Shown: piece by piece, positions 876 through 49,289 of the stretch
Layout: each line of letters opens with the position of its first letter
Position numbering within the stretch: the stretch's first letter is position 1
Assembly (NCBI GenBank): GCA_903829815.1
Contig: CAIKRR010000030.1
Span: 25,730 to 89,729, forward strand
Direction of reading: 5' to 3'
Source: an uncultured Pseudomonadota bacterium
Lineage (GTDB): Bacteria; Pseudomonadota; Gammaproteobacteria; Burkholderiales; SG8-39
Length of the DNA stretch: 64,000 bases
Program-made: the position numbers and the translations under genes
Notes under the pieces: model-generated
The model's database searches: none
Told to the model about the DNA's origin: nothing
Seen by the model: only the letters and a program-made list of their open reading frames with translations

Positions 876-1694
876 CTACTGACGCCAGTCGACCGGCTGG
901 CGAAAGCGCACCATCTCCATGCGTCGAACGACCGCATCGAACACGACCCGGGGCAGACTCCCGGCAGGGTCAAAGGCACTGGCATCGCGCCCCGACTGAC
1001 GCCGTACCGCTTCATCGAGAATGACATCGGCACCGCCCATGCCAAGTGCTGCAGCCTGGACTTCGCAGGCACGCTGCAAGGTCCAGTAGCGAAAGAATGC
1101 GTGCGGCAAACTGGTGCCGGTGACCAGCACCCCATGATTGCGAAGGACGAGCACATTGTGGCGCCCAAGGCTCGCCACCAGCCGCTCACGCTCATCACTG
1201 CGCACGGTGATGCCCTCGAAGTCGTGATAACCGACATCGCCCTGGAGGAGCGCCCCGTAGAAGTCATCATGACGCAGACCGGCACGCTTGCAGGCAACCG
1301 CCATCGCAGCCGTGGTGTGGGTATGGATCACGCACTGCGCGTCCTCGCGTGCCGAGTGGATGGCACCGTGAATGGCAAAGGCAGCCGGATTGCCACGCCA
1401 GGGACTTGTCGCGACGTTGACCCCATCGACCCCAACCTTGAGCAGATTCGATGCCGTCACCTCGCAGTAATTGAGCCCGAAAGGGTTCACCAGATAATGG
1501 TGCTCGGCACCGGGCACCCTGAGCGAGATGTGGTTGAAGATCGACTCGTGCCAGCCGAGAAAATCAAACACCTGGTAGCAGGCGGCCAGATCCAGGCGCA
1601 AGGACCACTCGTGCGGATCCATGCCGGCAGGCATGGTGACGGTTACAGCGTCGAGTGCCAGGGCACCGACGTTTTTCCGATCGACTGCATTCAT
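876..1694 (-). CDS. Class II aldolase/adducin family protein
   Basis: 272-aa ORF with the family pattern NHISLRVPG, His cluster CVIHTHT and LRNHGVLVTG. Its ATG overlaps the stop of the upstream ligase gene (ATGA at 1691-1694). Confidence 0.75.
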   Translation of the reverse strand: MNAVDRKNVGALALDAVTVTMPAGMDPHEWSLRLDLAACYQVFDFLGWHESIFNHISLRVPGAEHHYLVNPFGLNYCEVTASNLLKVGVDGVNVATSPWRGNPAAFAIHGAIHSAREDAQCVIHTHTTAAMAVACKRAGLRHDDFYGALLQGDVGYHDFEGITVRSDERERLVASLGRHNVLVLRNHGVLVTGTSLPHAFFRYWTLQRACEVQAAALGMGGADVILDEAVRRQSGRDASAFDPAGSLPRVVFDAVVRRMEMVRFRQPVDWRQ

Positions 1695-3262
1695 GTCAAT
1701 CCCCTCCCGATTTGTCGATCACCACCGGCCAGCAGACGCCGGACCTCGTCCTTTTGCACCTTGCCGAGCGCGTTCCTGGGCAACTGATCGACAAGCACCA
1801 CGCGGCGCGGATGCTTGTAGCGGGCAATGCGGTCGCGAAAGAGCGCGAGCACCATGGCTTCGTCAAGTGCGGGCAGCCCCGGCGCCGCTGCACAAGGCAC
1901 CACCACGGCCACCGCCACCTCACCCCAGCGCGGGTCAGGCATACCCACCACGGTGGCCTCCGCAATCACCGCACAAGCGGCCAGGATGTTCTCAAGCTCG
2001 GCCGGATAGATATTCTCGCCACCGCTGATGATCATGTCCTTCGAGCGGCCCACCACATGGTAGTAGCCCTCGTCATCAACACGAGCCAGGTCACCGCTGT
2101 GAAACCAGCCGTCGCGAAACGACGGATTGTCCGGATCTGCCCAGTAACCCTGCATGAGCGCAGGACTGCGCACCAGAATTTCGCCGACCTCACCACCTGC
2201 CACCTCATTGCCCAGCGCATCGACCAGTCGTACATCGACATGCAAGCCGACCTTGCCGGTGCTGCCGAGCTTGCGCAGCGCATCCTCGGGCTTCAGGTAG
2301 ATCGATACCGGTCCGGTCTCGGTCGAGCCATAGACCTGGGTGACCGCGACCCCTCGATCGATGAAGGCCTTCATCAAGGACTCGGGCACGGTAGAGGACC
2401 CGGTGTTGAGCATGCGCAGCGAACCGATATCGGTACTCATCCACTCGGGGTGCTCGATCACCGCCTTCAAGGTGGCAGGTACCAGCAGCGACACGCTGGG
2501 GCGCGACTGCCCGACCTCACGCAGCCAGGCAGCCGGATCGAAACGCGCATGTATCGTTACCGCAGCGCCGGCATGCAGCGCGGGCATCGTCTGGATACAC
2601 AGACCACCGACATGAAACATGGGCAGGGCCGAGAGCACATGGTCATCGCGGGTGAAGCCCTGGTAGTCGATCGCATTGATCGCGTTCCAGATCACCGCCT
2701 CGTGGGTATGTATCGCACCCTTGGGCAGACCCGTCGTGCCCGATGTGTAGACGATCATGACCGGGTCGGCACCACCACCCACGGATGCCACCGGCTCGGC
2801 ACCCGCTGCGGTCACCGCCTCCCAGCTCGCATCGGCATCGCCCGCGCCGACATTGCACGGGTCTGCCGAGGCCTCATCCATGAAGAGCACCGGGTACTGG
2901 CTGCCTGAGGCCAGCAGCGCATGCACGGTGTCGGCAAATCCGGCACCGGCCACCAGGCGACCCGCCGCCGAATGCGCAAGAATGGCGCGCAACTCAGGCA
3001 CGGCAAGCCGGAAATTGAGCGGCACAAACACCGCACCGAGCCGCGCCAGCGCGAGAAAGAGCACCAGCATCTCGGGATGGTTGTAGCCCAGATAGGCCAC
3101 ATGGTCGCCGCGCGCAACGCCGGCACGCTGTGCCAGGCCGGCGCTGGCCTGCTCGATGCGCTGCCATAGGGCGCTGTAAGTCATGCTCCGACCCTCGAAG
3201 CGCAATGCAGTCCGCTCGGGCTGAAACTGCGCATGCCGCTCGATGATGCGAGAAAGGCTCAT
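1691..3262 (-). CDS. AMP-dependent aryl/acyl-CoA ligase (adenylate-forming enzyme)
   Basis: 523-aa ORF with YTSGTTGLPKGA, GWFHSGDLA, SGGENIYPAELE and C-terminal LGKVQK signatures of the ANL superfamily. Confidence 0.85.
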   Translation of the reverse strand: MSLSRIIERHAQFQPERTALRFEGRSMTYSALWQRIEQASAGLAQRAGVARGDHVAYLGYNHPEMLVLFLALARLGAVFVPLNFRLAVPELRAILAHSAAGRLVAGAGFADTVHALLASGSQYPVLFMDEASADPCNVGAGDADASWEAVTAAGAEPVASVGGGADPVMIVYTSGTTGLPKGAIHTHEAVIWNAINAIDYQGFTRDDHVLSALPMFHVGGLCIQTMPALHAGAAVTIHARFDPAAWLREVGQSRPSVSLLVPATLKAVIEHPEWMSTDIGSLRMLNTGSSTVPESLMKAFIDRGVAVTQVYGSTETGPVSIYLKPEDALRKLGSTGKVGLHVDVRLVDALGNEVAGGEVGEILVRSPALMQGYWADPDNPSFRDGWFHSGDLARVDDEGYYHVVGRSKDMIISGGENIYPAELENILAACAVIAEATVVGMPDPRWGEVAVAVVVPCAAAPGLPALDEAMVLALFRDRIARYKHPRRVVLVDQLPRNALGKVQKDEVRRLLAGGDRQIGRGLT

Positions 3263-3289
3263 CGGCCATCGACCCCTGGCGTGCGATGA

Positions 3290-4579
3290 CTACTCATCGG
3301 TCTCGCCCGACTCGTACAAGGCCTCGCGCCCCATCCGATCCAGACACAGTTCGGCCGTCCAGGGCAGCATGAGCGACCCGCAACGGCTGTCGCGATAGAG
3401 CCGCTCGAGCGGCAGGGTCTTCAACATCGACTGCCCACCACAGGTGCGAATGGCCAACCGGCAGATATCGTTGGCGTTTTCCATCACCGTGTACTGGGTG
3501 GCATAAAGCCGCAAGCGTGCGTCCTTGGGCGGGTCGATTCGCGCTTCATGGATGGTGTGCAAAAAGAGCGCCCGGGTCTGCTCGAGCTTCACCCGCATCT
3601 CGGCCACCGCGATCTGCTTGGTGGGGTACATGCGCCGCTTCACCGGTGGCATGTCCGGCACTTCGCCGCGCAGATAGCGGATGGTGAAGTCGTATGCCGC
3701 CTGCGCGATACCCATATAGGTCGGCGCAAGCGTCATGAACATGTGCGGCCAGCGCGAGGCGGCCTGAAAGTAGACCCCACCTGGCATCAGCTGCTCGGCG
3801 TCAGCCACGTACACATCCTTGAACTGCAGGGTTCGCGAGACCGTACCACGCATGCCCAGCGGATCCCACTCACCCGAGATACTGACCCCGGGTGCATCGG
3901 CAGGCACCGCCACGTACATGGTGTCGCGCATGCCCGCACCGACCTTGTCCTCGGTGCACAGCACGCCGTAGAAGTTGGCTGCGCCCGAGAGCGACGCAAA
4001 TATCTTGCGTCCGTTGATCACCCAGCCGCCCTCAGCGCGTGTCGCGAGCGTGCCAAACGGTGCCTTGCCGGCGGCCGCTGCGCTACCCTCGGAAAAGGGC
4101 TGCGCATAGATGCTGCCCTGCTCGACCACGCGCGCGTAGTGCAGGGCTCGGCGTTCATGATGGAGGGCGCGGTCCTCGTCGCTCATGGTGAGGTCATCGG
4201 CCAGAGGTCCCGACCAGAGCTGCGAACAGGCATGCATGTTGAAGGTGAGCGCGGTGGCACCGCAATGACGACCGATCGTGGCAGCCACCATGCAATAGGT
4301 GGCGAAGTCAGCCCCGTGGCCCCCATGAGCCTTGGGCACGCACAGTCGCAAGAGGCCTGCGTCGCGCAGATCTGCGTAATTCTCGAACGGAAAACTCGCC
4401 TCGCGATCGTAGCGTTCGGCGCGGGCCGCAAAGCGCGTGCGACCGAGTTCATCGGCCAGCGCAATGAGAGCTGCCTGCTCGCTGGAGAGCGGGTAGCCCT
4501 CGCCGGTGATGGGGGGTGGCGTGTAGGTGCGCGGTTCACGCCGGACGGCTGGTGCGGGAGATGCAGATTCTGTTGACAT
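3290..4579 (-). CDS. Acyl-CoA dehydrogenase-fold flavoprotein (true ACAD or ACAD-type monooxygenase not distinguishable by eye)
   Basis: 429-aa ORF with ACAD-like organisation and the C-terminal pattern ERLYRDSRCG...WTAE. It lies 27 nt upstream of the ligase gene on the same strand. Confidence 0.7.
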   Translation of the reverse strand: MSTESASPAPAVRREPRTYTPPPITGEGYPLSSEQAALIALADELGRTRFAARAERYDREASFPFENYADLRDAGLLRLCVPKAHGGHGADFATYCMVAATIGRHCGATALTFNMHACSQLWSGPLADDLTMSDEDRALHHERRALHYARVVEQGSIYAQPFSEGSAAAAGKAPFGTLATRAEGGWVINGRKIFASLSGAANFYGVLCTEDKVGAGMRDTMYVAVPADAPGVSISGEWDPLGMRGTVSRTLQFKDVYVADAEQLMPGGVYFQAASRWPHMFMTLAPTYMGIAQAAYDFTIRYLRGEVPDMPPVKRRMYPTKQIAVAEMRVKLEQTRALFLHTIHEARIDPPKDARLRLYATQYTVMENANDICRLAIRTCGGQSMLKTLPLERLYRDSRCGSLMLPWTAELCLDRMGREALYESGETDE

Positions 4580-4603
4580 GATCGGCCTGGATTGAATGGG
4601 TCT

Positions 4604-5422
4604 TCAGTGACTTCCGATCGGGTCGACCGGAAAGTGGCGACCCAGAAAATCGAGCAGGATCGCATTGAACTGCGCCGGTTGTTCCATGCTGGCCAGATGG
4701 CCTGCGCCGGGCAGGCACACATACTCGGCACCACGGATTCGTGCTGCCATCTTGGACATGACCGAGGGCGGCGCATTGCCGTCCCGCTCACCGACCAGCG
4801 CAAGGGTCGGCACATCGATACGATCGAGGGCGGCGCGCTGATCAAAGCCCACCAGGGCATTGAGCGATGCACGATAGACCTCGGGGCGAAGCCGTCCCAT
4901 CGAGTCGGTGGCAATGGCTACACCGGCCGGATCGGGCGCATCACCCAGCATGGCCCGCACGAGCGAGGCGGCCAGTTCGGGCATGGTGCTCCCGGCATCA
5001 AGCCGCGCCAGACGAGCGCGCAGGAACTGCTGCTGCCAATCACCCTCGGGACGGCCAAAGGCCGGACTGGTGCCATAGAGCACGAGCCCCTGAACCCGTT
5101 CGGGCTCTGTCGCCATGACCTGCTGGGCCACCATGCCACCCATGCTGTGCCCCACCAGGACGGTACGCGCACTATCAAGGTGTCGCAGCAGGCGCGCGCA
5201 GGCGGCGGCAAGGCCTGCCATGTCGTAGGGATCGATCAGCGTACTGTCACCGTAGCCGGGCATGTCCCAGGCCGCAGCGCGATAGCCCTCGCGTGCAAGG
5301 GCCTCGAGTTGCCAGGGCCAGACGGTACGACCGCCACCCACACCATGCAGCAGCAGCACCAGCGTATCGCCCGATCCCGCTTCAGTCCATGCCGGCAATG
5401 CGCCTTGTATCGCAGCCGTCAT
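4604..5422 (-). CDS. Alpha/beta-fold hydrolase (possible thioesterase or NicD-like deformylase)
   Basis: I chose the internal ATG at 5420-5422 (MTAAIQG...), 1 nt after the stop of the upstream gene. The longer 336-aa ORF would overlap that gene. It carries the LLLHGVGGG oxyanion loop and the GHSMGG nucleophile elbow. Confidence 0.8.
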   Translation of the reverse strand: MTAAIQGALPAWTEAGSGDTLVLLLHGVGGGRTVWPWQLEALAREGYRAAAWDMPGYGDSTLIDPYDMAGLAAACARLLRHLDSARTVLVGHSMGGMVAQQVMATEPERVQGLVLYGTSPAFGRPEGDWQQQFLRARLARLDAGSTMPELAASLVRAMLGDAPDPAGVAIATDSMGRLRPEVYRASLNALVGFDQRAALDRIDVPTLALVGERDGNAPPSVMSKMAARIRGAEYVCLPGAGHLASMEQPAQFNAILLDFLGRHFPVDPIGSH

Positions 5423-5423
5423 C

Positions 5424-6479
5424 TCACGATTCCATCGACACGAGCACGCCCTCGTCGACCATGGTGCGGCCATCGAGTTCGACCGTGCAATTGCGCAGCG
5501 GCAGATCGAAGTGTCCCAGGGTATGGCGACCGGCAACCTCGTTGGCCCCGGTGGAGTAGAGGAAATTGCCGGCAAAGGCCCGCAGTTCGGTGCCATTGAA
5601 ATCACGGCGGTCATAGAAAGCCATGGCGTCCCAGCGCGCGGCCGGATTCATGCCCCACCCCACATGCGAGACTGCATAGGCTTCGGGCTCTCCCCAGGCG
5701 GCAAAATAACCCCGCATCATGTCGGCATCGAACCCTGCGCCGCTGATTTCGGTGACATAGTCGTTCTCGATCGTGAGATGAACCGCGTCGTGAATGAAAC
5801 GCTTGAAGGTGAGGTTGACATCCCCCGGGGCGAGGACGAGCCGGCCATTGACCGAGCCCGCCGCCGGAAAGGCGAGACACAGACCACCAGGCCAGTGCGC
5901 CACCGTGCCAGGCCGACTGGTGTAACCCCAGACACCACCGACGCGTGCACCTGCCAGACTCACCTCGAGTCGGGTACCTGCGGCCGAACTCACCCTCAGG
6001 GTGCTCGCATCGCGCAGCACGCGCATGGCAGCACGAACCTGCGGCTCGATGGCGTCATCGGGCATCAGGCGCTCGAGCGCCTCGGGATGCTCGTTGGAAA
6101 CCATCAGGAGACGCGCCCCGCCCTTGAGGATGGCGGGCAACTCGGTGGCATGCAGCAAGCCCTCGACGGTGAGATCAACCACCAGTACCGACTGCGCCAG
6201 TGCACCCACCACCGGCGCAAGGCCGCCCAGCGCATCGCTCGCGCCGGTGGACCGGACCGGCGCCGGTGCCTTCAATCGCGGGGATGGCACCACGAGGTGA
6301 AAGGGCCTGCAACCCAGCCGAAGCAGTGCCAGTTCAGCCAACTCGACATTGATGGGCCGCGACTGGGTCTCGGAAAGAATGGCTACGGCATCCCCCGCAC
6401 CCACACCGCACCGTGCGAATACTTCGGCAAAGCAGTCGATCCACTTGCCCTCGATCCGTTCACGCAGCATCTGCGTCAC
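5424..6479 (-). CDS. NicX-like (2,5-dihydroxypyridine 5,6-dioxygenase / aminopeptidase-T-fold) Fe(II) dioxygenase family protein, divergent paralogue
   Basis: 351 aa. It shares SHVGWGMNP, GNFLYSTGAN and GHFDLPLRNCTVELDG blocks with the paralogue at 9016-10065 and with P. putida NicX as I recall it. Confidence 0.6.
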   Translation of the reverse strand: MTQMLRERIEGKWIDCFAEVFARCGVGAGDAVAILSETQSRPINVELAELALLRLGCRPFHLVVPSPRLKAPAPVRSTGASDALGGLAPVVGALAQSVLVVDLTVEGLLHATELPAILKGGARLLMVSNEHPEALERLMPDDAIEPQVRAAMRVLRDASTLRVSSAAGTRLEVSLAGARVGGVWGYTSRPGTVAHWPGGLCLAFPAAGSVNGRLVLAPGDVNLTFKRFIHDAVHLTIENDYVTEISGAGFDADMMRGYFAAWGEPEAYAVSHVGWGMNPAARWDAMAFYDRRDFNGTELRAFAGNFLYSTGANEVAGRHTLGHFDLPLRNCTVELDGRTMVDEGVLVSMES

Positions 6480-6600: not shown

Positions 6601-7395
6601 TTACTTGCGCACACCGGGCGTCTCGATCGCGACACCCTGCGCACGCCAGGCAAGAAACAGTTCAAGGTCCAGATACTCGGGGGCGCCATAGGGCCACATC
6701 TCGGCGCGCACGCCCGACAGGCAACTGCGAAAGCGTCGATGCAGCGATCCGGCCTTCTGCCACTCGAGTCTGTAGATGGGATAGGCATTGGGATGCCCCT
6801 GGCTGATGGTTTCGGCGAGCAACTGGCGCCCCCAGTTCTGCTCATGGCAGTGGTTGCACGCAAGATTCATCTGGCCCATGCGCCGGTAGTAGAGAGCACG
6901 GCCAGCGTCAAAGTGCGCGCGCGCTTCAGCATCGATGGACACACCGATCGGCACGCCGCGCGACCACGACCCGACGTAGGCAGCAATGCCGATCGCCTCA
7001 TCAGACTCGGGGGTGAACGCTGCCAACCCCTGCTTGCCGACCCGGCAGGCGTCGATCCGACCAGCCAGGTTCACCAGGCGCCCGAGCGCGGTATCGATGC
7101 GCGGATAGCGCGCCGCGACACCCTTCATCGATTGCGCGGCGTCACCATGGCAAGTAGCGCAGGCCTGTTGCGAGCGCCCGGCAGGCGCGGCCCACAGCGC
7201 CGCCCCGCGGTCGAGCCACAGCTGCGCGGGGTTGGCAAACTCGTCGGCCTGCATCGCGCGCACCGATGCGGGTTGAAACGAAAGGCCCGAACGCAGGGCA
7301 TCGAGCGCGATGACGCGCTCCTGGGCAGGTGCCATCGGCGCGGCAGCCAGGACGGTCACCGCCAGGACAAGCTGTTGCACGACGGCGCGCATCAA
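6601..7395 (-). CDS. soxA: Diheme c-type cytochrome SoxA-like (L-cysteine S-thiosulfotransferase subunit family)
   Basis: 264 aa with a signal peptide. Two CxxCH motifs (CATCH, CNHCH) and candidate Cys heme-ligand contexts RIDACR and RRFRSCLSG are present. The C-terminal ...ETPGVRK is SoxA-like. Its ATG overlaps the soxX stop (7392-7395). Confidence 0.7.
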   Translation of the reverse strand: MMRAVVQQLVLAVTVLAAAPMAPAQERVIALDALRSGLSFQPASVRAMQADEFANPAQLWLDRGAALWAAPAGRSQQACATCHGDAAQSMKGVAARYPRIDTALGRLVNLAGRIDACRVGKQGLAAFTPESDEAIGIAAYVGSWSRGVPIGVSIDAEARAHFDAGRALYYRRMGQMNLACNHCHEQNWGRQLLAETISQGHPNAYPIYRLEWQKAGSLHRRFRSCLSGVRAEMWPYGAPEYLDLELFLAWRAQGVAIETPGVRK

Positions 7396-7904
7396 CGCAG
7401 CGTCCCGAGATAGGCGACCACATCCTCGATCGCCTGCGCGTCAAGGACGGGCCGGCCAGCAAACGCCGCGGCCACCCGCACACGACCCTCGGCGCGATAG
7501 TAGGCCGGCATGATGCTCTCGGGCACGACCAGGCTCGAGTCAACCATGCGCAGCCGCAACTGCCCCTCGCTCAAACGGGCCCCTGCGCCATCGATCGGCG
7601 GGCCCAGATTGCCCATCGAACGCGCGTTGCCGCCCGGCACCTGATGACAGAGTGTGCAGTTGGACTCGCGCGAAAAGACGACCTCGCGCCCTCGGGTGGC
7701 ATCGCCGCGCAGATCGGCCAACGGCCTGTCGATGGCACCTGCCACGACCTGGAGTCCGGCCAGGACCTGGGCAGCGGCGCCAGAAGCCGATGGCGCGGGG
7801 CGTGGCTGGGCCACCACGACCTGTGCAAAAGAGGCCTGCGCGGTCATCGCCGCAGCAACAACGCAGCCGATGAGGGCAGACAGACCGGCCGCCGCCCTGT
7901 GCAT
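7392..7904 (-). CDS. soxX: Monoheme c-type cytochrome SoxX-like
   Basis: The start at ATG 7902-7904 (MHRAAAGLSALIG..., signal peptide) lies 2 nt after the stop of the Bug gene. There is a single CTLCH heme motif. It is tightly coupled to the SoxA-like gene. Confidence 0.6.
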   Translation of the reverse strand: MHRAAAGLSALIGCVVAAAMTAQASFAQVVVAQPRPAPSASGAAAQVLAGLQVVAGAIDRPLADLRGDATRGREVVFSRESNCTLCHQVPGGNARSMGNLGPPIDGAGARLSEGQLRLRMVDSSLVVPESIMPAYYRAEGRVRVAAAFAGRPVLDAQAIEDVVAYLGTLR

Positions 7905-7906
7905 CG

Positions 7907-8896
7907 CTACTCGGCGCGCGCGCCCGAGGCCTTGACTGCACGCCCCCATTGCTCGACCTCTCTTGCGATGAACGTTGCAAACTCGGCGGGCGTGTCGGCC
8001 ATGGGATCGAGCCCCTGCGCAGCCAGCGTCGCACGTGCCTCGGGGCTTGCGAGTGCCCGTCGTACTTCGGCGTTCAGTCGGTTGACGATATCGACCGGCG
8101 TACCAGCCGGCGCAACCAGACCGCTCCAGAATGCGATCTCGAACTGTGGCAACCCGGCTTCGACGATATCGGGGACATCGGGGTATTGCGGACTGCGCTC
8201 GCGGGAAGTCACCAGCAGAGCCCGCAGCTTGCCTGCCCGAATGTGCGGACCCAGATTGGCGAAACTCTCGAACACCATCTGGACCTGCCCGGCCAGCAGG
8301 TCTGCAACCGCCGGGCCACCCCCCTTGTAGGGAACGTGGACGATATCGGTAGCCGTGATCGTCTTGAAGAGTTCACCGGCCAGATGCAGCGGCGTGCCGC
8401 TGCCGGCAGAGGCAAAGTTGAGCTTGCCAGGCCGTGCACGGGCGAGATCGATCAGCTCGCGCACGGTCTTCGCAGGCACCGCTGGATTGACCGCCAGCAC
8501 GAGCGGCCCGATCGATACCAGACTCACCGGGGCGAACGAGGTGCGGGGGTCGTAGGCAAGACGAGGATAGATGCTCGGCGCAATGCCCAGTGTGCTGGTG
8601 CTGCCATAGAGCAGGGTATAGCCATCAGGCAGGGCGCGCGCTGCCGCCTCCGAGCCGACCGTGCCACCTGCCCCTGCGCGATTGTCGATCACGACCTGCT
8701 GACCCAGACCCTCGGAGAGCTTCTGTGCCACCAGACGCCCGACGATGTCGGTCGGTCCACCGGGCGGAAAGGGCACGATGAGACGCAAGGCCCGTGAGGG
8801 AAAGACCTCGGCCGCAGGGGCAGCCGCCGATGACAGGGCAATCATCGCGCTGAGGACAGCAAGGAAACACAGGGAGGTCGATCGCATGAATATCAT
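7907..8896 (-). CDS. Bug/TctC-family tripartite tricarboxylate transporter substrate-binding protein
   Basis: 329 aa with a signal peptide. Family blocks are LIVPFPPGGPTD, VVIDNRAGAGG, PDGYTLL, HVPYKGGGPA..DLLAGQV and W.GL.AP.GTP. Confidence 0.85.
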   Translation of the reverse strand: MIFMRSTSLCFLAVLSAMIALSSAAAPAAEVFPSRALRLIVPFPPGGPTDIVGRLVAQKLSEGLGQQVVIDNRAGAGGTVGSEAAARALPDGYTLLYGSTSTLGIAPSIYPRLAYDPRTSFAPVSLVSIGPLVLAVNPAVPAKTVRELIDLARARPGKLNFASAGSGTPLHLAGELFKTITATDIVHVPYKGGGPAVADLLAGQVQMVFESFANLGPHIRAGKLRALLVTSRERSPQYPDVPDIVEAGLPQFEIAFWSGLVAPAGTPVDIVNRLNAEVRRALASPEARATLAAQGLDPMADTPAEFATFIAREVEQWGRAVKASGARAE

Positions 8897-9015
8897 TGCC
8901 GGCTGACGGGACCAGAGCCTGATGACCCAGGACCAGTGTGCAGTATATAGTGCCCTTTTCGCTGCCGAACCCGGAGTCCTGCGCGATGCTGCCTGCTCAC
9001 TTCCAGTCTACCGAG

Positions 9016-10065
9016 ATGAATCCGGCCCGCCTGCCCGGTCTTTTCCGCCAGCAATTCGAGATGTCGGCCGTGAAGAAGGGAGAAACCATTGCGGTGGTCT
9101 CCGACCTGGGGACCCGGCGCGAGTACGTGCAGGCCTCGTTCGCCGCCGCTGACGACCTGGGTGCCGACATCTACGAGATGTGCGTCAACTCGATCCCTTC
9201 CTGGACCAAGGTGGGGGTGCCGACCATCGGGCAGTGCAAGGGCACGCTCGAGGCGCTTTGCCAGGTCGATCTCATCGTCATCTTCCATGTGCCGCTCTTT
9301 GCAAGCTGGCTGCGCGCCGTGATGCAGCGCGGCGTGCGAGTGCTGATGATCATCGACGCGCCCGATGACCTCGAGCAACTGATGTCGCCACCCGGATTGA
9401 AAGAAGCCCTCAAGTACGCCAACGCACTCTACAAGGCCACGCGCCAGGTGCGGGTGACCAGCCGTGCCGGTACCGACTTCACCTACGATTGCGGCGAATA
9501 CCCGACGATGATCCAGTGGGGCTACGCCGATGAGCCCGGGCACTTCGATCACTGGGGTGCGGGCCACATCCACACCTTTCCGAACGAAGGCAGCGCCAGC
9601 GGTACCGTCGTGATCTCACCCGGTGACATCGTGATCCTGCCCTACTGCCGCTACGTGCAGGACCCGATCAGGCTCGAGGTGCGCGAGGGCCATGTCGTAT
9701 CGATCGAGGGCGGACTTGACGCAAAGCTGATGCGCGACTGGCTCGAGGATGGCAAGGTCGACGAGCATGATCGCGACCCCTACGCGCTGTCGCATCTGGG
9801 CTGGGGCATGAACCCGCAGGCGCGCTGGAACTGGCTCGGGCTGACCGGTGGTGAACCCGAACGCAACCGTGCTGCGGCGCGCGTCTTCCCGGGCAACTTC
9901 CTTTTCAGTACCGGCCCCAACACCCAAGGCGGTGGCAAGCGCACCACCCGTGGCCATTACGATGTGCCGATGCGCGATTGCACCGTAGCACTCGACGGAC
10001 GCGTGGTGATCAATGAAGGCCGCATCGTCGATGAACGCATGCGCGTGGCTCGCGTACGACGCTGA
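9016..10065 (+). CDS. 2,5-dihydroxypyridine 5,6-dioxygenase-like protein (NicX family)
   Basis: It closely resembles NicX as I recall it: ADEPGHFDHW, NFLFSTGPNTQGGGKRTT, SHLGWGMNP and GHYDVPMRDC (H-x-D). The start is ambiguous. ATG 9016 fits homologue length, ATG 8986 has a GGAG upstream, and the ORF opens at 8938. Confidence 0.7.
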   Translation: MNPARLPGLFRQQFEMSAVKKGETIAVVSDLGTRREYVQASFAAADDLGADIYEMCVNSIPSWTKVGVPTIGQCKGTLEALCQVDLIVIFHVPLFASWLRAVMQRGVRVLMIIDAPDDLEQLMSPPGLKEALKYANALYKATRQVRVTSRAGTDFTYDCGEYPTMIQWGYADEPGHFDHWGAGHIHTFPNEGSASGTVVISPGDIVILPYCRYVQDPIRLEVREGHVVSIEGGLDAKLMRDWLEDGKVDEHDRDPYALSHLGWGMNPQARWNWLGLTGGEPERNRAAARVFPGNFLFSTGPNTQGGGKRTTRGHYDVPMRDCTVALDGRVVINEGRIVDERMRVARVRR

Positions 10066-10092
10066 GCGCACCGTCCTGACCAGGAATCCCAC

Positions 10093-11130
10093 ATGACCTT
10101 GACCGATGACGCCGATCGCCCCGATCGCGCACTGATCGACGCCCTCGAGGCGTCGAATTACCACCCGCTGTGGACCCGCTACCGGGCTATCACGCCGGTG
10201 AAACCAGCAGCACGCGACAATCCACGGCTTTGGCGCTGGCGCGATTTCGAACCCTTCGTCGAGCGGGCCGCACGCGAAGTACCAATTGAAGATATCGAGC
10301 GACGTGCCATCATCCTGGCGCACCCTGCGTTTGGCGGTGCCACCGTCACCACCGCCAACCTGATCGCAGCGTTCACCGTTCTCGAGCCGGGCGACCATGC
10401 AGTCCCGCATCGGCACACCACGGCGGCGATACGTTTTGGCACGCGGGCCGAGGGCGCGGTCACCCTGGTGAACGGCCGTCGCTGCGCCATGAATGCGGGC
10501 GACCTGGTGCTCACACCGCCCATGTGCTGGCATGGCCACATCAACGAAGGCCGCGAGCGAACCGTCTGGTTCGATGCCGCCAACATCCCCTTCATTTGCG
10601 GCCTCGATGCCAACTTCTTCGAGCCCGGCAGCCGCAGCGACACTGCCTTCTGGGATGTCGATGAAGGCGACGAGCGACTCTACAAGGCAAGCGGCCTGCA
10701 GGTGCTGCGCGACGAACCCCATGGCCTGCAAGGCCACTCACCCAAGTTCCACTATCCCGGCGAAGTGACCCGGCGCCTGCTCGATGCCATGCCGCGCGCA
10801 GCCGATGGCCAGCGCAGCCTGCGCTACACCAACCCCGACACCGGCGGCCCGGTGATGGCCACCCTGGACTGCCAGTACACCCGGCTCGCAGGCGGTGAGG
10901 CGACGCGTGCACGGCGCGCCACCCACAATGCCGTGTGCCTGGTGGTGTCAGGCGAGGGGCATTCGCAGATAGGGGCAGAACGCATCGAATGGCAGCAGCA
11001 CGATGTATTCACCGTGCCGCACTGGACGCTCGCCTCCCACACCGCTCGATCGGCCGAGGCCGACCTGTTCATCGTGTCCGACCGACCGGTGTTCGAAGCA
11101 CTGGGCTTGCTGCGGGTCGAGTTCGAGTAG
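10093..11130 (+). CDS. Gentisate 1,2-dioxygenase-family bicupin dioxygenase
   Basis: 345 aa. GDO-type block: HAVPHRHTTAAIRF...GDLVLTPPMCWHGHINEG...VWFDAANIPFICGLDANFFE. It starts 28 nt after the NicX-like gene. Confidence 0.75.
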   Translation: MTLTDDADRPDRALIDALEASNYHPLWTRYRAITPVKPAARDNPRLWRWRDFEPFVERAAREVPIEDIERRAIILAHPAFGGATVTTANLIAAFTVLEPGDHAVPHRHTTAAIRFGTRAEGAVTLVNGRRCAMNAGDLVLTPPMCWHGHINEGRERTVWFDAANIPFICGLDANFFEPGSRSDTAFWDVDEGDERLYKASGLQVLRDEPHGLQGHSPKFHYPGEVTRRLLDAMPRAADGQRSLRYTNPDTGGPVMATLDCQYTRLAGGEATRARRATHNAVCLVVSGEGHSQIGAERIEWQQHDVFTVPHWTLASHTARSAEADLFIVSDRPVFEALGLLRVEFE

Positions 11131-11141
11131 CCCCCGACCGA

Positions 11142-13412
11142 TCAACGCCGGCGACTCAGGGCGTAGGCCTGATCGCGACCCGCAAGATACGCGCGCGGCC
11201 AGGACACGTTGCTGGACCCTGCTTCAGCAGCCGCATGCAGGGTGAAGTACGGGTCTGCCAGATGCGGTCGGGCAAGGGCGCACAGATCGGCACGGCCGGC
11301 AGCGAGCAGCGTGTTGACCTGATCGATGCTGGTGATTGCACCCACTGCCATCGTCGCGATGCCGGTCTCGAGCCGGATCTGCTCGGCAAATCCCGCCTGA
11401 TACATGCGGCCGTAGACCGGGCGCGAGGCCGGGTCGGTCTGCCCGGTCGACACATCGACGAGGTCGCAGCCGTGTGCCTTGAGCATGCGGGCAATCTGCA
11501 CTGAATCGTCGCCAGTGATGCCGCCTGGCATCCAGTCGGTCGCCGAGATGCGGGCAGCCATTGGCCGCTCGGCAGGCCACAGGGCACGACAGGCATCGAA
11601 GATCTCGAGCGGAAAACGCATGCGCGCCTCGAGCGACCCGCCGTACTCATCGGTGCGCTTGTTGGTCACTGGCGAGATGAACGTGGCCAGCAGATAACCA
11701 TGGGCCATGTGCACCTCGATCATGTCGAAGCCGGCGTCGATGGCCATTTGGGTCGCGCGTTCGAAGTCGGCGCGTACCCGATCCATGTCGGCGCGGGTCA
11801 TCGCTGCGGGAACCTGCGATTCACCCGGCTTGTAGGGCAGCGGCGACGGCGCGAGCAAGGGCCAGTTGGCCTCGGGCAAGGGGCTGTCGATCGACTCCCA
11901 ACCCAGTTGGGTCGAGCCCTTGCGCCCCGCATGCCCCAGTTGCAGGCACAGTCGCGCGGCGCTCTGGGCATGCGCAAAGTCGCTTATCCGACGCCATGCC
12001 GCCACGTGCTCGGGGGTGTAGATACCGGCGCAGCCCGGGGTGATGCGGGCCTGGGCAGAAACAGCCGTCATCTCGGTGTAGACCAGGCCGGCACCGCCAA
12101 TGGCACGCGAGCCGTAATGCACCAGATGCCAGTCGCCAGCCACACCGTCAGTGGCCGAGTACTGGCACATCGGCGACACCACCACCCGGTTGGCCAATTG
12201 CAGGTCGCGCAAGCGCAAGGGGGCAAGAAAGGGCGGCGCCTTGAACCCGCTTGGCAGCACGATGCCCTGTTGCGCGGCCACGCTGCGGTTCCACCACTGT
12301 TCGACCTCGGCAACCACGCCAGGGTCGCGCAGACGCAGGTTCTCCCAGGTGATCTGCTTGGAGCGTGACAGCAGCGAGAAATTGAACTGCACCGGGTCCA
12401 TCGCCCAGTACCGTTCCATGTGTTCGAACCAGCCCAGACTGGTATCGGCCGAGTGCTGGATCTTCTCGACTTCGGGCCGCCGCGCCACCTCGTAGTTGGC
12501 CAGGGCGCGCGGCAGGTTGTCGGGCGATTCGCTCACCGCCTTGTGCAGCGCGATCACATCTTCCATCGCAAGCTTGGTGCCCGAGCCGATCGAGAAGTGG
12601 GCGGTATGCGCGGCATCACCGACCAGCACGGTGTTCTCGTGGCTCCAGTGTTCACAGTGGATGTTCGGAAAGTTTCGCCAATGCGAGCGATTGACCAGCA
12701 GACGGTGACCGCGCAGTTCCTCGGCAAACAGGCGCTCGCAATAGCGAGCCGTGGCTTGCTCATCGGTTACAGCGAGCCCCGAACGACGGAAGGTCTCGTC
12801 ACTGGTCTCGAGAATCACGGTGCACTGGCCACGCGTGAACTGGTACGCGTGAATGGCCCACAACCCGGCTTCATCCTCCTTGAAGGCAAACGTGAAGCCG
12901 GGCAGCGGCGTTTCGGCACCCAGCCAACAGAACTTGTTGGGGCGCATCTCGATCACCGGCCGGAAATGCGCCTTCCAGGCCTCGCGCACCGGGCTGTTGA
13001 CCCCGTCGGCCGCCACCACCAGGTCGGCATCGCGATGACTCTCGATGCCCGGGTCACGGGTCTGGTAGCGGATGTCCACGCCCAGGCTCGCCGCACGACG
13101 CTGCAGGATCTCGAGCAAGGTCAGACGCTTCAGGCCGGAAAAGCCATGCCCCGAGGAGCGCAGAACCTGCCCCTTGAAGTGGGTGTAGATGTCGTCCCAG
13201 TAGGCAAAATTGGCCGCGATCTCGGCATGACTCTCCTCATCGGCCAGTTGCAGGCGACCCAGCGTCTCGTCGGAGAGCACGATGCCGAAGCCGAACGTGT
13301 CGTCGGGCTTGTTCTGCTCGAACACGGTGACCTTGGCCTGGGGTATCGACTTGCTCACCAGTATCGAGAAATAGAGCCCCGCGGGCCCACCACCAATGAC
13401 ATCGATCTTCAT
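11142..13412 (-). CDS. Bifunctional aryl-CoA hydroxylase/reductase (N-terminal FAD monooxygenase fused to C-terminal Old-Yellow-Enzyme NADH:flavin oxidoreductase; salicylyl-CoA 5-hydroxylase / 2-aminobenzoyl-CoA monooxygenase-reductase type)
   Basis: The start ATG 13410-13412 ([14 protein letters not shown], dinucleotide-binding motif) is preceded by AAGGAG. The C-terminal half has an OYE pattern ([10 protein letters not shown]..., [11 protein letters not shown]). About 756 aa. Confidence 0.8.
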
Positions 13413-13508
13413 GTTCGAACTCCTTGCGCCAGCATGCTGCAGCCCTTGATCGCTCAAGTCAGCCCGAGGTGCAATGCCCGGAGGGCAGGCGCAGGCGACT
13501 GCCTGATC

Positions 13509-13537
13509 AATATAATTTACCGTGTATATTACGTCAA
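13509..13537 (-). promoter_or_regulatory. Putative sigma70 promoter of the hydroxylase gene (-35 TTGACG, 17-nt spacer, -10 TATATT) overlapped by the inverted repeat AATATA-N10-TATATT
   Basis: Read on the minus strand: TTGACG (13537-13532), 17 nt, TATATT (13514-13509). This is the most AT-rich stretch of the marR/hydroxylase divergent intergenic region. The inverted-repeat arms are at 13509-13514 and 13525-13530. Confidence 0.5.
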
Positions 13538-13561
13538 TAATTCCATCGATTCGAGACGACC

Positions 13562-14092
13562 ATGAGTCAGAGCCAAGTCGAACGCGTCCCCCCGCATCTG
13601 GCGGCATCCGCCGAGGAACTGACGGTGACTGACTTCGAGCAGTCGCTCATCTGTGCAGCCGAGGCGTTCTACCGCTGCATCGGCTTGCTGCTCGGGCCAG
13701 CGGCGCGCGAGCACCGGCTCTCGGGCGAGGACAACGTGATCCTGCAGCAACTCATGGCCTCACCCCACCCGCGCAACCTGACCGATCTCGCACGATTTGC
13801 CAATCGCGACGACACAGCCAACATCCAGTACAGCCTGCGCAAGCTGATCACGGCGCAACTGGTCGAGAAGGCTCCGGGGTCGACCAATCGCGATTCACGC
13901 TATCAGGTCACCGCCCGCGGTCGAGCCCTCACCGAAGAATTTCTGGCGCGCCGCCGCGCACTGGTGATGGAGCCCGCGCGTCAGATGCGCGATGCCGATA
14001 CCCACTTGCAGGCAGCGATTCGCGCTCTCAACATGATGGCTGGCATCTATGATCAGGGCACGCGAAGCATCACCGCCCGCGAAGATCGCTGA
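13562..14092 (+). CDS. MarR-family winged-helix transcriptional regulator
   Basis: 176 aa with a wHTH-like segment ([31 protein letters not shown]...[11 protein letters not shown]). It is divergent from the hydroxylase gene. Confidence 0.7.
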
Positions 14093-26804: not shown

Positions 26805-27893
26805 ATGATCCGATTCGAGTTGCAGACACACTGGTTTTCGATGATTGTCCCGCTCATGCGCAGCCTTGCCTCCACCCCCCGCGCGCTGCACGCCCCCACC
26901 TGTCACGCCGGCGCTCGGCGTACCCTTGCCTGGGCGATCGCGGCCCTGGCAAGCCTCGCCCTGCCCACCTTCACCACGGACACGGCAGCCGCTCTCGAAT
27001 ACCCGACCCGCGCAGTCACGCTCGTGGTGCCCTTCACCCCGGGCACCGGCATCGACATCATCGCGCGCACGCTCGCCCAGCGCCTCGCTCTTGCCTGGGG
27101 ACAGAGCGTGGTGGTCGACAACAAGCCGGGCGCCAGCAGCAATATCGGCACCGAGTTCGTCGCGCGGGCCGCCCCCGACGGGCATGTGCTGCTGGTCACC
27201 GCCACCAGCTTTGCAACCAATGCCGCCATCAACCGCAACCTGCGCTATGACCCTGTGAACGGCTTTGCCCCGATCGGCGTACTGGCCAACGGCACGCTCA
27301 GCCTGGTGACGAGCAACGCGCTGGCAGCGAGCACCGTGCAAGACCTGGTAGGCCTCGCGCGCCGATCGCCGGGCCAACTGAACTACGGCTCCTCGGGCAA
27401 TGGCACGCCCCAGCACCTCACCATGGAGCTCTTCAAGCTCGATGCCGGGGTGCAGCTCACCCATGTGCCCTACAAGGGCACGGCCGGTGCGATCAACGAT
27501 CTGCTGGCCGGGCGACTCGATGCCATGTTCATTCCGGTGCACACCGCACTGCCCTATATCCAGCAGAACCAGATGCGGATGCTGGCGGTGCTGGCCCCCG
27601 AGCGTCTCGCCGTCGTCGGCAAGGTCGCCACCATGAAGGAGGCGGGGTTTCCGGGGGTTCAGGTAGGAAGCTGGTACGCGATGCTGGCCCCGGCTGGCAC
27701 ACCGCCCGAGCTCATCACCCGCATCAACACCGATATCAACGCGCAGTTGAATTCAGTCGAGGTGGCAGCGACGTTCGCCCGTCAGGGGCTGGCACCGATG
27801 ACAGGCACGCCTGCCCGCCTCGCCGATCTCATTCGCACCGAACTCGCCCGCTGGCCACGCGTGGTGGCAGCAGCGGGCATACAGGCCGACTAG
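26805..27893 (+). CDS. Bug/TctC-family substrate-binding protein
   Basis: Family blocks are TLVVPFTPGTGID, VVVDNKPGASS, PDGHVLL, HVPYKGTAGAINDLLAGR and WYAMLAPAGTP. The start is uncertain (26805, 26841 or 26856). Confidence 0.8.
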   Translation: MIRFELQTHWFSMIVPLMRSLASTPRALHAPTCHAGARRTLAWAIAALASLALPTFTTDTAAALEYPTRAVTLVVPFTPGTGIDIIARTLAQRLALAWGQSVVVDNKPGASSNIGTEFVARAAPDGHVLLVTATSFATNAAINRNLRYDPVNGFAPIGVLANGTLSLVTSNALAASTVQDLVGLARRSPGQLNYGSSGNGTPQHLTMELFKLDAGVQLTHVPYKGTAGAINDLLAGRLDAMFIPVHTALPYIQQNQMRMLAVLAPERLAVVGKVATMKEAGFPGVQVGSWYAMLAPAGTPPELITRINTDINAQLNSVEVAATFARQGLAPMTGTPARLADLIRTELARWPRVVAAAGIQAD

Positions 27894-31313: not shown

Positions 31314-32354
31314 TCAGAGCTGGTCGGCCGAGATCTTCGCCTCGCGGATGATCTTGCCGTAGCGGGTCACCTCGAGATCGATCAGACGAGCGAATTCCTC
31401 GGGGCCCGATCCGATGACCTCGAAACCCTCGGGCGGGAAGCGCACCTTGATATCGGGCTCGAGAAAGCCCTTGCGCGCTGCCGCGGCAATCTGCGCGGCG
31501 AGCGGCGCCGGCAGGCCGCGCGGGCCCCACAAGCCGTACCACGAAGACATGGTGAACCCGGGCATCACGGTCTCAGCCAGCGTGGGCACCGAGGGCACGC
31601 CAACATTGCGCTTGAGGCTGGTGACCGCAATCGCACGCAGGCGGCCATCGCGCACATGCGAGATGAGCGACAGTATCGGTGTCGACATGCCGGCCACCTG
31701 CCCGCCCAGCGTGTCGCTGATGGCAGGCCCCATGCCCTTGTACGGAACAATGGTGAGTGGCGCGTTGAGTACCGAGCGGAATGACTCGGCCACCAGATGA
31801 TCAGGTGAACCGATGGCCGCAATCGCCCAGTTGAGCGGCACATCGCGCCGCGCCATCAGGTCTCGGATGTCGTTGATACCCGAGGCCGGATGCACGGTGA
31901 CGATGAGCGGCACCTCGGCAATCTGGGTAATGGGCGCGAAGTCGGCCACGGCATCGTAGGGCACCTGCTTCATGATGAGCGCGTTGATGAGGTGCACTGA
32001 GGCACTGATCATCAGCATGTAGCCATCAGGAGGCGCCTTCGCCACGAGCGAGGCGCCGATCACCCCGCTGCCACCCGGCTTGTTCTCGACGATGAAGGGT
32101 TGACCAAAGGCATCCGAGAGCTTCTGCGCCAGTGTGCGCGCAACCGCATCGGTACCGCCGCCCGGCGGCGCCGGGAGGATGAGGCGCACCGGGCGCACCG
32201 GCCAGGCCTGTGCCTGGGCGTCAGAGGCTGCCGACAAGAGGCACGCAAGGCCTGTCACGGCACTCATCACGACCCCAACCAGCAACCGCGGAAGCGTGCC
32301 GTGCGCGCAGCTCTGGCTATCAGCCGGCCGCTCCACCCTGCAAGCGCCGGTCAC
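31314..32354 (-). CDS. Bug/TctC-family substrate-binding protein
   Basis: Family blocks are RLILPAPPGGGTD, FIVENKPGGSG, PDGYMLM, IVPYKGMGPA and WYGLWGPRG. The putative GTG start overlaps the VOC stop (GTGA at 32351-32354). An alternative ATG is at 32267. Confidence 0.8.
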   Translation of the reverse strand: MTGACRVERPADSQSCAHGTLPRLLVGVVMSAVTGLACLLSAASDAQAQAWPVRPVRLILPAPPGGGTDAVARTLAQKLSDAFGQPFIVENKPGGSGVIGASLVAKAPPDGYMLMISASVHLINALIMKQVPYDAVADFAPITQIAEVPLIVTVHPASGINDIRDLMARRDVPLNWAIAAIGSPDHLVAESFRSVLNAPLTIVPYKGMGPAISDTLGGQVAGMSTPILSLISHVRDGRLRAIAVTSLKRNVGVPSVPTLAETVMPGFTMSSWYGLWGPRGLPAPLAAQIAAAARKGFLEPDIKVRFPPEGFEVIGSGPEEFARLIDLEVTRYGKIIREAKISADQL

Positions 32355-34049: not shown

Positions 34050-35011
34050 TCGGTCGACTCGTCACGACACTGGCCGCGACGGCCAGTCTGCTGGCAGCAG
34101 GTGCGGTGGCCGCCGCGGACTGGCCGACGGGTCCGGTGCGGATCATCATCCCCTACCCCCCCGGTGGCGCCACCGACATCACCGGGCGCATGCTCGCCGA
34201 AGAGTTTGCGAAGACCTTCGGACAACCCTTCCTCGTCGACAACCGTGCCGGCGCCGACACCCAGATCGGCACCGAGGCAGTCGTGCGCGCACGACCTGAC
34301 GGCCAGACACTGCTCTACACCGCAGCCCCTCTGGTCATTGGCCCGGCGCTCTACCCGAAGATGAGCTACGACCCGCTGCGTGATCTCGAACCGGTGGCGC
34401 GGGTGGTCGAGAACGGCATGCTGCTGGTTGCACACCCAAGCGGTGCCGCCAGCATCCAGGCGCTGCTCGCGGCCGCGCGCGCCAGGCCCGGTGCACTCAC
34501 CTTTGCCTCGTCGGGCTATACCGGCGTGAGCTTCATGGCGAGCGAACTGCTCGCATCGGTAGCAGGGATACAGATCACGGCCGTACCCTACAAGGGCACC
34601 GGTCAGATCATTCCAGACCTCCTCGGCGGTCAGGTGGGCTACTTCTTCGACAACCCAAGCACCAGCATCGGCAACGTGAAGTCAGGTCGGCTGCGCGCCC
34701 TGGGCTATACCGGTGCAAGACGGCTGCCGGCATTGCCCGATGTGCCCACCTTCGTCGAATCGGGCGTACCTGCCTACGAAACCGTGAACTGGTGCGGCTT
34801 GCTTGCCCCCGTGGGTACACCGGCCGCGGTGCTCGACCGACTCAATGCCGAGGCAACACGCCTGTTGCGTCGAGCCGACTTTGCCGAGCGGATCGAGCGC
34901 GATGGGCTGGTACCAGTCGCCTCGAGCAGAGCCGAGTTCGGCGCGTTCATGCGGGCGGAAGCCGGCAAGTGGGCAAAGCTCGTCCAGGAACGCAATATCC
35001 GTATCGACTGA
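34046..35011 (+). CDS. Bug/TctC-family substrate-binding protein
   Basis: ATGA overlap with the amidohydrolase stop. Blocks are RIIIPYPPGGATD, FLVDNRAGADT, PDGQTLL and AVPYKGTGQIIPDLLGGQV. Confidence 0.85.
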   Translation: MIGRLVTTLAATASLLAAGAVAAADWPTGPVRIIIPYPPGGATDITGRMLAEEFAKTFGQPFLVDNRAGADTQIGTEAVVRARPDGQTLLYTAAPLVIGPALYPKMSYDPLRDLEPVARVVENGMLLVAHPSGAASIQALLAAARARPGALTFASSGYTGVSFMASELLASVAGIQITAVPYKGTGQIIPDLLGGQVGYFFDNPSTSIGNVKSGRLRALGYTGARRLPALPDVPTFVESGVPAYETVNWCGLLAPVGTPAAVLDRLNAEATRLLRRADFAERIERDGLVPVASSRAEFGAFMRAEAGKWAKLVQERNIRID

Positions 35012-49272: not shown

Positions 49273-49289
49273 GACAACTCCAGAACCAT

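Follow-up and report, generated by a model that had tools for sequence, protein, structure and literature searches.

The only role in which the heterodimeric cytochrome SoxAX is understood is that of the opening enzyme in the Sox thiosulfate pathway, where it acts on the SoxYZ carrier. The related TsdA is a diheme thiosulfate dehydrogenase that works without a carrier protein and thereby provides a precedent for carrier-free sulfur oxidation by the SoxA fold. The present analysis concerns a soxX-soxA pair from a stretch of 64,000 nucleotides of an uncultured Burkholderiales bacterium (contig CAIKRR010000030.1, positions 25,730 to 89,729; here called the window), which carries no detectable gene for a SoxYZ carrier and is largely devoted to aromatic catabolism. 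The best-supported explanation of the pair is that it is a functional, truncated derivative of a non-canonical second-sox module, kept in an aromatic operon by descent.

A module of this kind has been described in Starkeya novella, where the second sox cluster consists of soxX2Y2Z2A2F2 and a xanthine-oxidase-family molybdenum (Mo) enzyme (Snov_1975-1982) and has no assigned role (PMC3797975). Bradyrhizobium diazoefficiens can oxidise thiosulfate without its second soxY (PMC5748708), a gene that may or may not be of the module type. Copies outside sox clusters are already numerous, with 978 for soxA and 1097 for soxX in one genome survey (PMC13500833), and the window case is therefore a variant of something known. 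A full-text literature search on the term AACIE, which names the carrier of the module, returned nothing relevant, and literature on the soxA2/soxY2 nomenclature was limited to papers on Campylobacterota. The comparison with S. novella is one of published architecture only. The window SoxA falls within the clade formed by the SoxA proteins of such a module, its SoxX and SoxA are the same kinds of protein, and SoxB and SoxCD are likewise absent. The locus of the window lineage differs in that it lacks the SoxY paralogue, SoxZ, the Mo enzyme and the flavocytochrome, and in that it sits in an aromatic-acid operon.

The SoxX-SoxA pair and its haem ligands

The pair lies on the minus strand. The soxA gene (6601-7392) encodes a diheme SoxA-type cytochrome c of 263 residues with a signal peptide, and soxX (7392-7904) a monoheme SoxX-type cytochrome c of 170 residues; upstream of both lies a gene on the same strand for a periplasmic solute-binding protein of the Bug/TctC family (7907-8896, 329 residues; 312 residues from 8845 in some assemblies). 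As an earlier note on this DNA had stated, all three genes are present at these coordinates, and the Bug stop codon (TAG, 7909-7907) is separated from the soxX start (ATG, 7904-7902) by two bases, which read CG. The three genes are intact. The same note had placed an ATGA overlap between soxX and soxA at 7392-7395, but this is absent: the minus strand reads TTGATG from 7395 to 7390, and the soxX stop (TGA, 7394-7392) and the soxA start (ATG, 7392-7390) share the single base A7392. An ATGA is found at this junction in the relatives L015, L016 and L175 (L-numbers, such as L010, L013, L100 and L115, denote related loci from the genome and metagenome scans). Gene calls in public assemblies start soxX at the upstream ATG at 7949, which gives a protein of 185 residues and a 43-nucleotide overlap with Bug, while the start at 7904 gives a cleaner and more typical signal peptide.

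The assignment of the two proteins to the SoxA and SoxX families is borne out by hidden Markov model and structure-sequence comparison, which place both inside the families, in the type I diheme kind, with matches far above chance level. SoxA matches the NCBIfam model TIGR04484 over profile positions 1-212 of 212 (216.9 bits, cutoff 110) and the Pfam SoxA-TsdA cytochrome c domain PF21342 (E = 1.3e-33), and SoxX matches TIGR04485 (71.1 bits, cutoff 61). Both align over nearly their full length with the type I SoxAX of Rhodovulum sulfidophilum (1H31; SoxA with 1H31_A, E = 2.4e-51, and SoxX with 1H31_B, E = 5.1e-22) and likewise essentially full-length with that of Paracoccus pantotrophus (2C1D; SoxA with 2C1D_A and SoxX with 2C1D_B). 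The motifs that had been read from SoxA are indeed there, namely CATCH, CNHCH and the Cys residues in RIDACR and RRFRSC contexts, and both CxxCH motifs and both Cys ligand positions match 1H31_A and 2C1D_A. In the alignment RIDAC falls on MINAC of 1H31_A and RRFRSC on DRFRGC, which suggests that these Cys residues would ligate the haems. The R-x-x-x-C context expected for the active-site Cys is present as well. SoxX has the single CTLCH that had been reported for it and, in addition, IMPAYY, and this haem/Met region matches 1H31_B and 2C1D_B. On these alignments the window pair is a true SoxA and SoxX of the type I kind, with the predicted haem ligands all in place.

With canonical type I SoxAX (1H31 and 2C1D) the pair shares the domain order, the two CxxCH haems with Cys axial ligands in SoxA, the one His/Met haem in SoxX, the adjoining genes and the signal peptides. 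In contrast, the window SoxA is only about 35-39% identical to canonical SoxA and falls in a separate clade, and no SoxY with a GGCGG arm, SoxB or SoxCD lies near the pair. The likeness to TsdA/TsdB is confined to the shared SoxA-TsdA cytochrome c domain; unlike TsdA, the window SoxA is a full-length match to the SoxA equivalog model and is paired with a SoxX, and no TsdA chain was matched in the solved-structure search at E <= 0.001.

The earlier note had also seen no further sox gene in the 64 kb, and this holds: SoxY of either arm type, SoxZ, SoxB, SoxC and SoxD went undetected by tblastn, with the canonical SoxB, SoxC, SoxD, SoxY and SoxZ of a Ruegeria plasmid cluster and the paralogous SoxY and SoxZ as queries, and by motif search, which found no SoxB signature motif and no GGCGG or AACxE C-terminal arm among the open reading frames (ORFs) of the window. 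Gene calls and Pfam annotations reveal no sox gene in the 10 kb past each window end on the parent contig, so that about 83 kb of contig in total are without SoxY, SoxZ, SoxB, SoxC and SoxD. Two marks of a canonical system, a GGCGG SoxY and SoxZ accompanying soxXA and a SoxB in the locus, are thus both missing. The only 2Fe-2S (Fer2) and molybdopterin-binding (MoCoBD) genes of the window, at 46834-49805, are weakly similar (38% and 27%) to the Mo enzyme of the sox-like module. They form part of a cytoplasmic CoxSML-type cluster of the xanthine dehydrogenase family on the minus strand (46834-50728), with an 812-residue Mo subunit, a 2Fe-2S subunit and a probable FAD subunit (49835-50728), and to judge from sequence this cluster is unrelated to the periplasmic Mo enzyme of the module.

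Relatives of the pair and the second sox module

Canonical-cluster SoxA proteins (from soxXYZABC(D) of Ruegeria, Paracoccus and Rhodobacter) are 35-39% identical to the window SoxA, compared with 60-70% for the SoxA proteins of the module, among which L013, L011 and L012 are nearest (67-70%). In a neighbour-joining tree every one of 200 bootstraps separates canonical SoxA from all the other sequences. All 200 likewise recover the window lineage as monophyletic, and its sister in nearly all replicates is a SoxA from module-bearing Burkholderiales (L013, L012 or L011). The NCBIfam equivalog models are blind to the split between canonical and module proteins: SoxA and SoxX of the module pass them too, with 239 bits for the SoxA of L011.

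The SoxA genome scan yielded 74 loci at 41-89% identity. Two of these, L015 (SoxA 89% identical) and L016 (76%), have the arrangement of the window; the other 72 comprise 3 without upstream sequence, 2 with a solitary SoxA and 67 in which SoxX, a SoxY homologue and SoxZ lie directly upstream of SoxA. The order SoxX-SoxY(AACxE arm)-SoxZ-SoxA is therefore that of 67 of the 69 informative genome loci outside the window lineage. Where the flanking sequence suffices, most module loci add a 2Fe-2S protein (Fer2) and a xanthine-oxidase-family molybdopterin-binding subunit of about 725 residues (MoCoBD), and the module then reads: 2Fe-2S protein, Mo subunit exported by the twin-arginine translocation (Tat) pathway, SoxX, SoxY paralogue with an AAC(I/L)E arm, SoxZ and SoxA. 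A Tat signal is present on the Mo subunit of L011. The SoxY homologues of the 67 loci all end in ...VT(L/I)(S/A/G/P)AC(L/I/M/V/T/A)(E/D)... and none in GGCGG; the L011 carrier scores 165.6 bits against TIGR04487, 'SoxY-related AACIE arm protein', versus 86.5 bits against true SoxY (cutoff 125). Neither SoxB nor SoxC is found within 10 kb of the module loci, and a GGCGG SoxY is likewise lacking.

The name 'SoxY-related AACIE arm protein' is used by the annotation pipeline PGAP in plasmid records of Neorhizobium galegae and Methylobacterium, with the order (2Fe-2S)-binding protein, molybdopterin cofactor-binding protein, sometimes a cytochrome c and an FAD oxidoreductase, soxX, AACIE-arm protein, soxZ and soxA, and the same architecture is annotated by PGAP in Roseomonas marmotae. 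Cultured bacteria with the full module include S. novella, N. galegae and Methylobacterium sp. NMS14P. The module (L011-L013 and L017-L092; for example L011:6094-10786), often with a cytochrome c/FAD flavocytochrome, ranges over Burkholderiales, Hyphomicrobiales, Beijerinckiaceae, Methylobacterium, Neorhizobium, Roseomonas and Methylomirabilota. The two solitary SoxA genes of the non-canonical clade are found in Hyphomicrobiaceae metagenome-assembled genomes (MAGs) among housekeeping genes (L032:9237-10079 and L031:2739-3422); that of L032 is flanked by isopropylmalate-dehydrogenase-like, DnaJ-like and murein endopeptidase genes, and within 8-9 kb of it SoxX, SoxY and SoxZ are all missing. The window locus shares the SoxA clade with the module, but has no SoxY paralogue and SoxZ between soxX and soxA and no adjacent 2Fe-2S protein and Tat-exported Mo subunit.

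How the pair could have lost these genes is suggested by a series of related loci around NicXa (5424-6470, minus strand, 348 residues; PF26233 in precomputed annotations), a NicX-like Fe(II) dioxygenase homologue and the first gene of a core that continues with a hydrolase, an acyl-CoA dehydrogenase (ACAD)-like protein and a CoA ligase. In L013 (SoxA 69%), MoCoBD-SoxX-SoxY-SoxZ-SoxA is followed by an opposite-strand TctC, a GMC oxidoreductase, MarR, an RDH/QueG-like Fe-S protein and then NicXa-hydrolase-ACAD-like-ligase-aldolase, a set that is 58-78% identical to that of the window. In L100 the order enoyl-CoA hydratase-SoxX-SoxY-SoxZ-SoxA lies directly upstream of NicXa. L115, which represents the same chromosomal neighbourhood as the window, has IlvD on the minus strand, a salicylyl-CoA-5-hydroxylase-like gene on the plus strand, SoxX, SoxA and NicXa, with gaps of 10 and 0 nucleotides and with neither SoxYZ nor Bug. 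The window, L015, L175 and L016/L010 have an extra block of cupin(-)-NicXb(-)-TctC(+) between hydroxylase and SoxX, NicXb being a second NicX-like paralogue, and the order TctC-SoxX-SoxA-NicXa is seen in the window, L015, L016 and L175. The Bug-SoxX-SoxA order does recur in relatives, whose SoxA proteins are 89% (L015), 82% (L175) and 76% (L016/L010) identical to that of the window. In L010 a BrnT/CopG-type toxin-antitoxin pair and a helix-turn-helix (HTH) gene are inserted between NicXb and TctC (L010:6660-7970), and the FAD part of its hydroxylase fusion is a separate ORF or disrupted (284 residues, and 473 residues for the OYE part).

These arrangements are consistent with a history in which the ancestor of one uncultured freshwater Burkholderiales group would have carried the second-sox module beside a NicX-like/CoA-dependent aromatic-acid cluster and later lost the Mo-enzyme genes from the locus. 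Both the soxX/soxY and the soxZ/soxA junctions of the full module are 4-nucleotide stop/start overlaps, and we infer that soxYZ was deleted cleanly between the two, which would leave soxX abutting soxA. The cupin-NicX-TctC block would then have brought a Bug gene directly upstream of soxX. The window matches metagenome scaffolds from freshwater lake studies. GroEL shares 88% identity with that of MAGs labelled 'Burkholderiales bacterium' and 86% with that of Tepidimonas, which places the organism in an uncultured lineage of Burkholderiales.

Function of the pair and competing explanations

The pair gives every appearance of being maintained. Nei-Gojobori ratios of nonsynonymous to synonymous substitution rates (dN/dS) among the window, L015 and L016 are approximately 0.04-0.11 for soxA and 0.14-0.16 for soxX, with 0.03 to 0.21 for neighbouring catabolic genes, and the haem motifs and Cys/Met ligands are intact in five sequences (window, L015, L016, L175 and L115). 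Of the residues that 90% or more of the module SoxAs share, only two are changed in SoxAs without SoxYZ, and in the window lineage only. By these measures soxXA is under maintenance and gives no sequence sign of altered specificity.

Most likely, the pair would still catalyse the reaction typical of SoxXA, with a carrier whose gene lies outside this locus. SoxXA is predicted to be a periplasmic heterodimeric cytochrome c complex of a diheme SoxA with His/Cys-ligated haems and a monoheme SoxX, which would still be functional and would form, by two-electron oxidation, an S-S bond between a sulfur substrate and the Cys of a SoxY-type carrier. The carrier would come from elsewhere in the genome and the electrons would pass to a soluble c-type cytochrome, while soxXA itself would be transcribed by read-through of the catabolic operon and take no part in the aromatic pathway. 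The account as a whole, with its second-sox origin, a predicted function that uses a carrier in trans, a bystander position in the operon and a Bug protein that is not a partner, is given a probability of about 0.55.

Several observations weigh against it. The carrier in trans is pure inference, as no SoxY or SoxZ lies on the stretch of contig covered; no biochemical function has been assigned to the parent module either, and the SoxAX2 and YZ2 proteins of the second S. novella cluster were undetected under any tested condition (PMC3797975). The SoxA phylogeny is by neighbour-joining only, and its canonical anchors are all alphaproteobacterial, with canonical Burkholderiales SoxA left out. The dN/dS values are approximate, with dS at 0.9-1.8 and hence near saturation, although dN is far below dS. 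Finally, the tight packing of the genes (10 nucleotides between hydroxylase and soxX in L115, 2 nucleotides between Bug and soxX in the window, and no terminator found before NicXa) would also fit a tie to the pathway.

The main rival to a carrier in trans is a new, carrier-independent role, either as a stand-alone periplasmic enzyme that would, in a TsdA-like manner, oxidise or couple small thiols, thiosulfate or sulfane sulfur, or as a cytochrome that transfers electrons. Purifying selection without SoxYZ in cis in at least four diverged members of the lineage, the full set of haem ligands kept by the L115 pair, the solitary SoxA genes of the same clade in the MAGs L031 and L032 and the hundreds of soxA and soxX copies outside sox clusters (PMC13500833) all point in its direction. 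It nevertheless appears rather unlikely, as only two conserved SoxA positions differ from the module SoxAs, which gives no sequence sign of a new specificity, and as the solved-structure search brought up no TsdA chain. We know of no biochemical precedent for SoxAX turnover without SoxYZ. A non-functional leftover, expressed or silent, could explain why the usual partners are absent at the locus and would have a parallel in S. novella, where the second-cluster proteins were undetectable in all tested conditions (PMC3797975), but in five independent sequences both ORFs are unbroken and have kept every haem ligand, and this, with dN/dS of 0.04-0.16 between members with near-saturated synonymous sites, makes it very improbable. 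The earlier note had left room for a displaced canonical pair, that is, an ordinary thiosulfate-oxidation soxXA that moved away from a soxYZB(CD) locus with no copy of its own. The NCBIfam equivalog models do call both proteins and the rest of the genome is unseen; these models, however, fail to separate the canonical and module clades. The 35-39% against 60-70% identity and the fully supported split speak otherwise, and because the window SoxA nests in a clade of SoxAs from module-bearing Burkholderiales, with their AAC(I/L)E carrier and Mo enzyme, a displaced canonical origin appears essentially excluded.

The other suggestion of that note was a role in the adjacent pathway, in which SoxXA would act on a Bug-bound or pathway compound, such as a thiol-substituted aromatic acid or released reduced sulfur, or would serve as a periplasmic redox outlet. 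In its favour, NicXa is immediately preceded by sox genes in L100, L115 and the window lineage, each time in a different arrangement, and is only a few genes away from them in L013, the spacing is tight, and the ACAD-like neighbour is weakly similar to sulfur-related ACAD-fold enzymes, all of them far under cutoff. The 130-nucleotide spacer between soxA and nicXa holds no terminator and one weak promoter-like match, and is not conserved among the relatives. The wider survey argues the other way. NicXa has 80 metagenome relatives at 67-82% identity and its core with hydrolase, ACAD-like protein and ligase is widespread, yet among the 44 metagenome NicXa-core loci for which 3 kb or more of upstream sequence is available, 42 are free of sox genes, the exceptions being L100 and L115. 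The gene just upstream of NicXa varies (flavin reductase and MarR, RDH/QueG-like Fe-S protein, FAD monooxygenase). Of the 83 NicXa genes in a neighbour-joining tree of limited resolution, those linked to Sox are all confined to a single subclade of 29, where Sox-free loci stand among them, and the NicX cluster occurs in none of about 70 other module loci. To judge from this distribution, a single ancestral juxtaposition with later losses fits better than repeated recruitment. Moreover, the pathway enzymes are all of cytoplasmic types, Bug is absent from L115, and Bug genes are very abundant in the window. A pathway role is accordingly held to be improbable, and a periplasmic redox module for the adjacent aromatic pathway is not favoured. 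Similarly doubtful is the more elaborate proposal of a carrier-independent periplasmic sulfur/thiol oxidase or redox relay, recruited to a sulfur-bearing substrate or by-product of the aromatic operon and with Bug handling the same compound. If true, such a carrier-free SoxXA in an aromatic operon would be unprecedented among SoxAX-type enzymes in dispensing with SoxYZ and in serving something other than lithotrophic sulfur oxidation.

The association with Bug seems not to matter, and the main value of the locus would lie in the module, its mis-annotation and the case of a SoxXA without carrier. A widespread module of Mo hydroxylase, SoxX, AAC(I/L)E SoxY, SoxZ and SoxA has no assigned substrate, and standard annotation labels its parts as thiosulfate-oxidation genes; for this reason, metagenome surveys that use soxA or soxX as markers will over-call thiosulfate oxidation. 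A lineage that keeps SoxXA under selection after loss of the carrier in cis would in turn provide a natural test of SoxAX with a carrier in trans or with none.

The Bug/TctC protein and the neighbouring genes

Orphan Bug/TctC proteins of Burkholderiales form large paralogous families, mostly without adjacent TctAB. The window Bug resembles them in its strong match to Pfam TctC (PF03401; 256.7 bits, profile positions 2-273 of 274), in its many regional paralogues, and in that most of these stand beside catabolic genes; only its downstream neighbour is unusual. It has a signal peptide, which contains its sole Cys, and the mature protein is free of Cys, as had been noted before. TctC paralogues number 7 among the roughly 55 genes of the window. 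The six others, 34-50% identical to the Bug upstream of soxX, lie at 26988-27890 (plus), 31323-32204 (minus), 34121-35008 (plus), 35219-36097 (plus), 40754-41626 (minus) and 41809-42717 (minus), and an eighth Bug/TctC gene lies just beyond the window end (L178:16493-17509). With seven paralogues in 64 kb and an eighth just outside, a Bug next to soxX is unremarkable and the adjacency is not beyond chance. No TctA or TctB was found among the scanned or annotated neighbours, a set that does not include every ORF of the window.

The spacing between Bug and soxX is 2 nucleotides in the window, a possible GTG start overlapping the stop in L015, 3 nucleotides in L175 and about 30 in L016, and the two genes are likely co-transcribed. 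The proposal that Bug supplies a ligand to SoxXA or is its partner finds no comparative support: L115 has the pair without Bug, and L100 and L013 still have SoxYZ at that place. Orthologues of this Bug, 81-92% identical to it, are confined to the lineage of the window, and a tie to SoxXA is further undercut by the next homologues (about 62-64%), which sit in unrelated aromatic/catabolic clusters; sox linkage was looked for among the Bug homologues outside the lineage and none was seen. The association of Bug with SoxXA looks shallow and incidental, and Bug is most plausibly the uptake receptor of the divergent NicXb-cupin unit and the wider aromatic cluster rather than a SoxXA partner.

The neighbours of the pair are, as the earlier note had it, enzymes of cytoplasmic CoA pathways and of ring cleavage. 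Downstream of NicXa, all on the minus strand, are an alpha/beta-fold hydrolase (4604-5422, 272 residues; Pfam Abhydrolase_1/6, from gene calls), an ACAD-fold protein (3290-4579, 429 residues), which is under all NCBIfam cutoffs, an AMP-forming acyl/aryl-CoA ligase (1691-3184, 497 residues as called) and a class II aldolase/adducin-superfamily protein (876-1694; NF005451, 301 bits, cutoff 207). The ACAD-like protein was considered as a clue to sulfur metabolism and rejected, as its desulfinase, SfnB and DszC matches are far below cutoff and its best match is a generic FadE16-type model. Divergent from Bug, on the plus strand, are NicXb (8986-10065, 359 residues, 32% identical to NicXa) and a bicupin dioxygenase that resembles gentisate and 5-aminosalicylate 1,2-dioxygenases (10093-11130) at scores below cutoffs. 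Next comes, on the minus strand, a fusion of FAD monooxygenase and OYE of the bifunctional salicylyl-CoA 5-hydroxylase/oxidoreductase type (11142-13412, 756 residues as called), which reaches equivalog level (NF006101, 1111.8 bits, cutoff 1078), and on the plus strand a MarR/HTH_27-type regulator (13562-14092; PF13463 in precomputed annotations). With its called start at 13412 the fusion stays clear of the MarR gene; here and elsewhere (11142-13607, 4604-5614, 1691-3262 and 8938-10065) the longest ORF begins upstream of the start used in the public gene calls. Among the relatives L095-L174 the core of NicX-like protein, hydrolase, ACAD-fold protein and CoA ligase (876-6470 and 8986-13412 in the window) comes with or without the class II aldolase and is often preceded by the salicylyl-CoA 5-hydroxylase-type fusion.

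The remaining window is that of a heterotroph engaged in aromatic catabolism, with Rieske oxygenases, an FAA hydrolase, UbiD, an enoyl-CoA hydratase, ACADs and many solute-binding proteins. At 57129-59273 on the plus strand lies an ORF of 714 residues with a CMVCH motif and no Pfam match, which is a called gene on the parent contig as well (L178:4457-6601).

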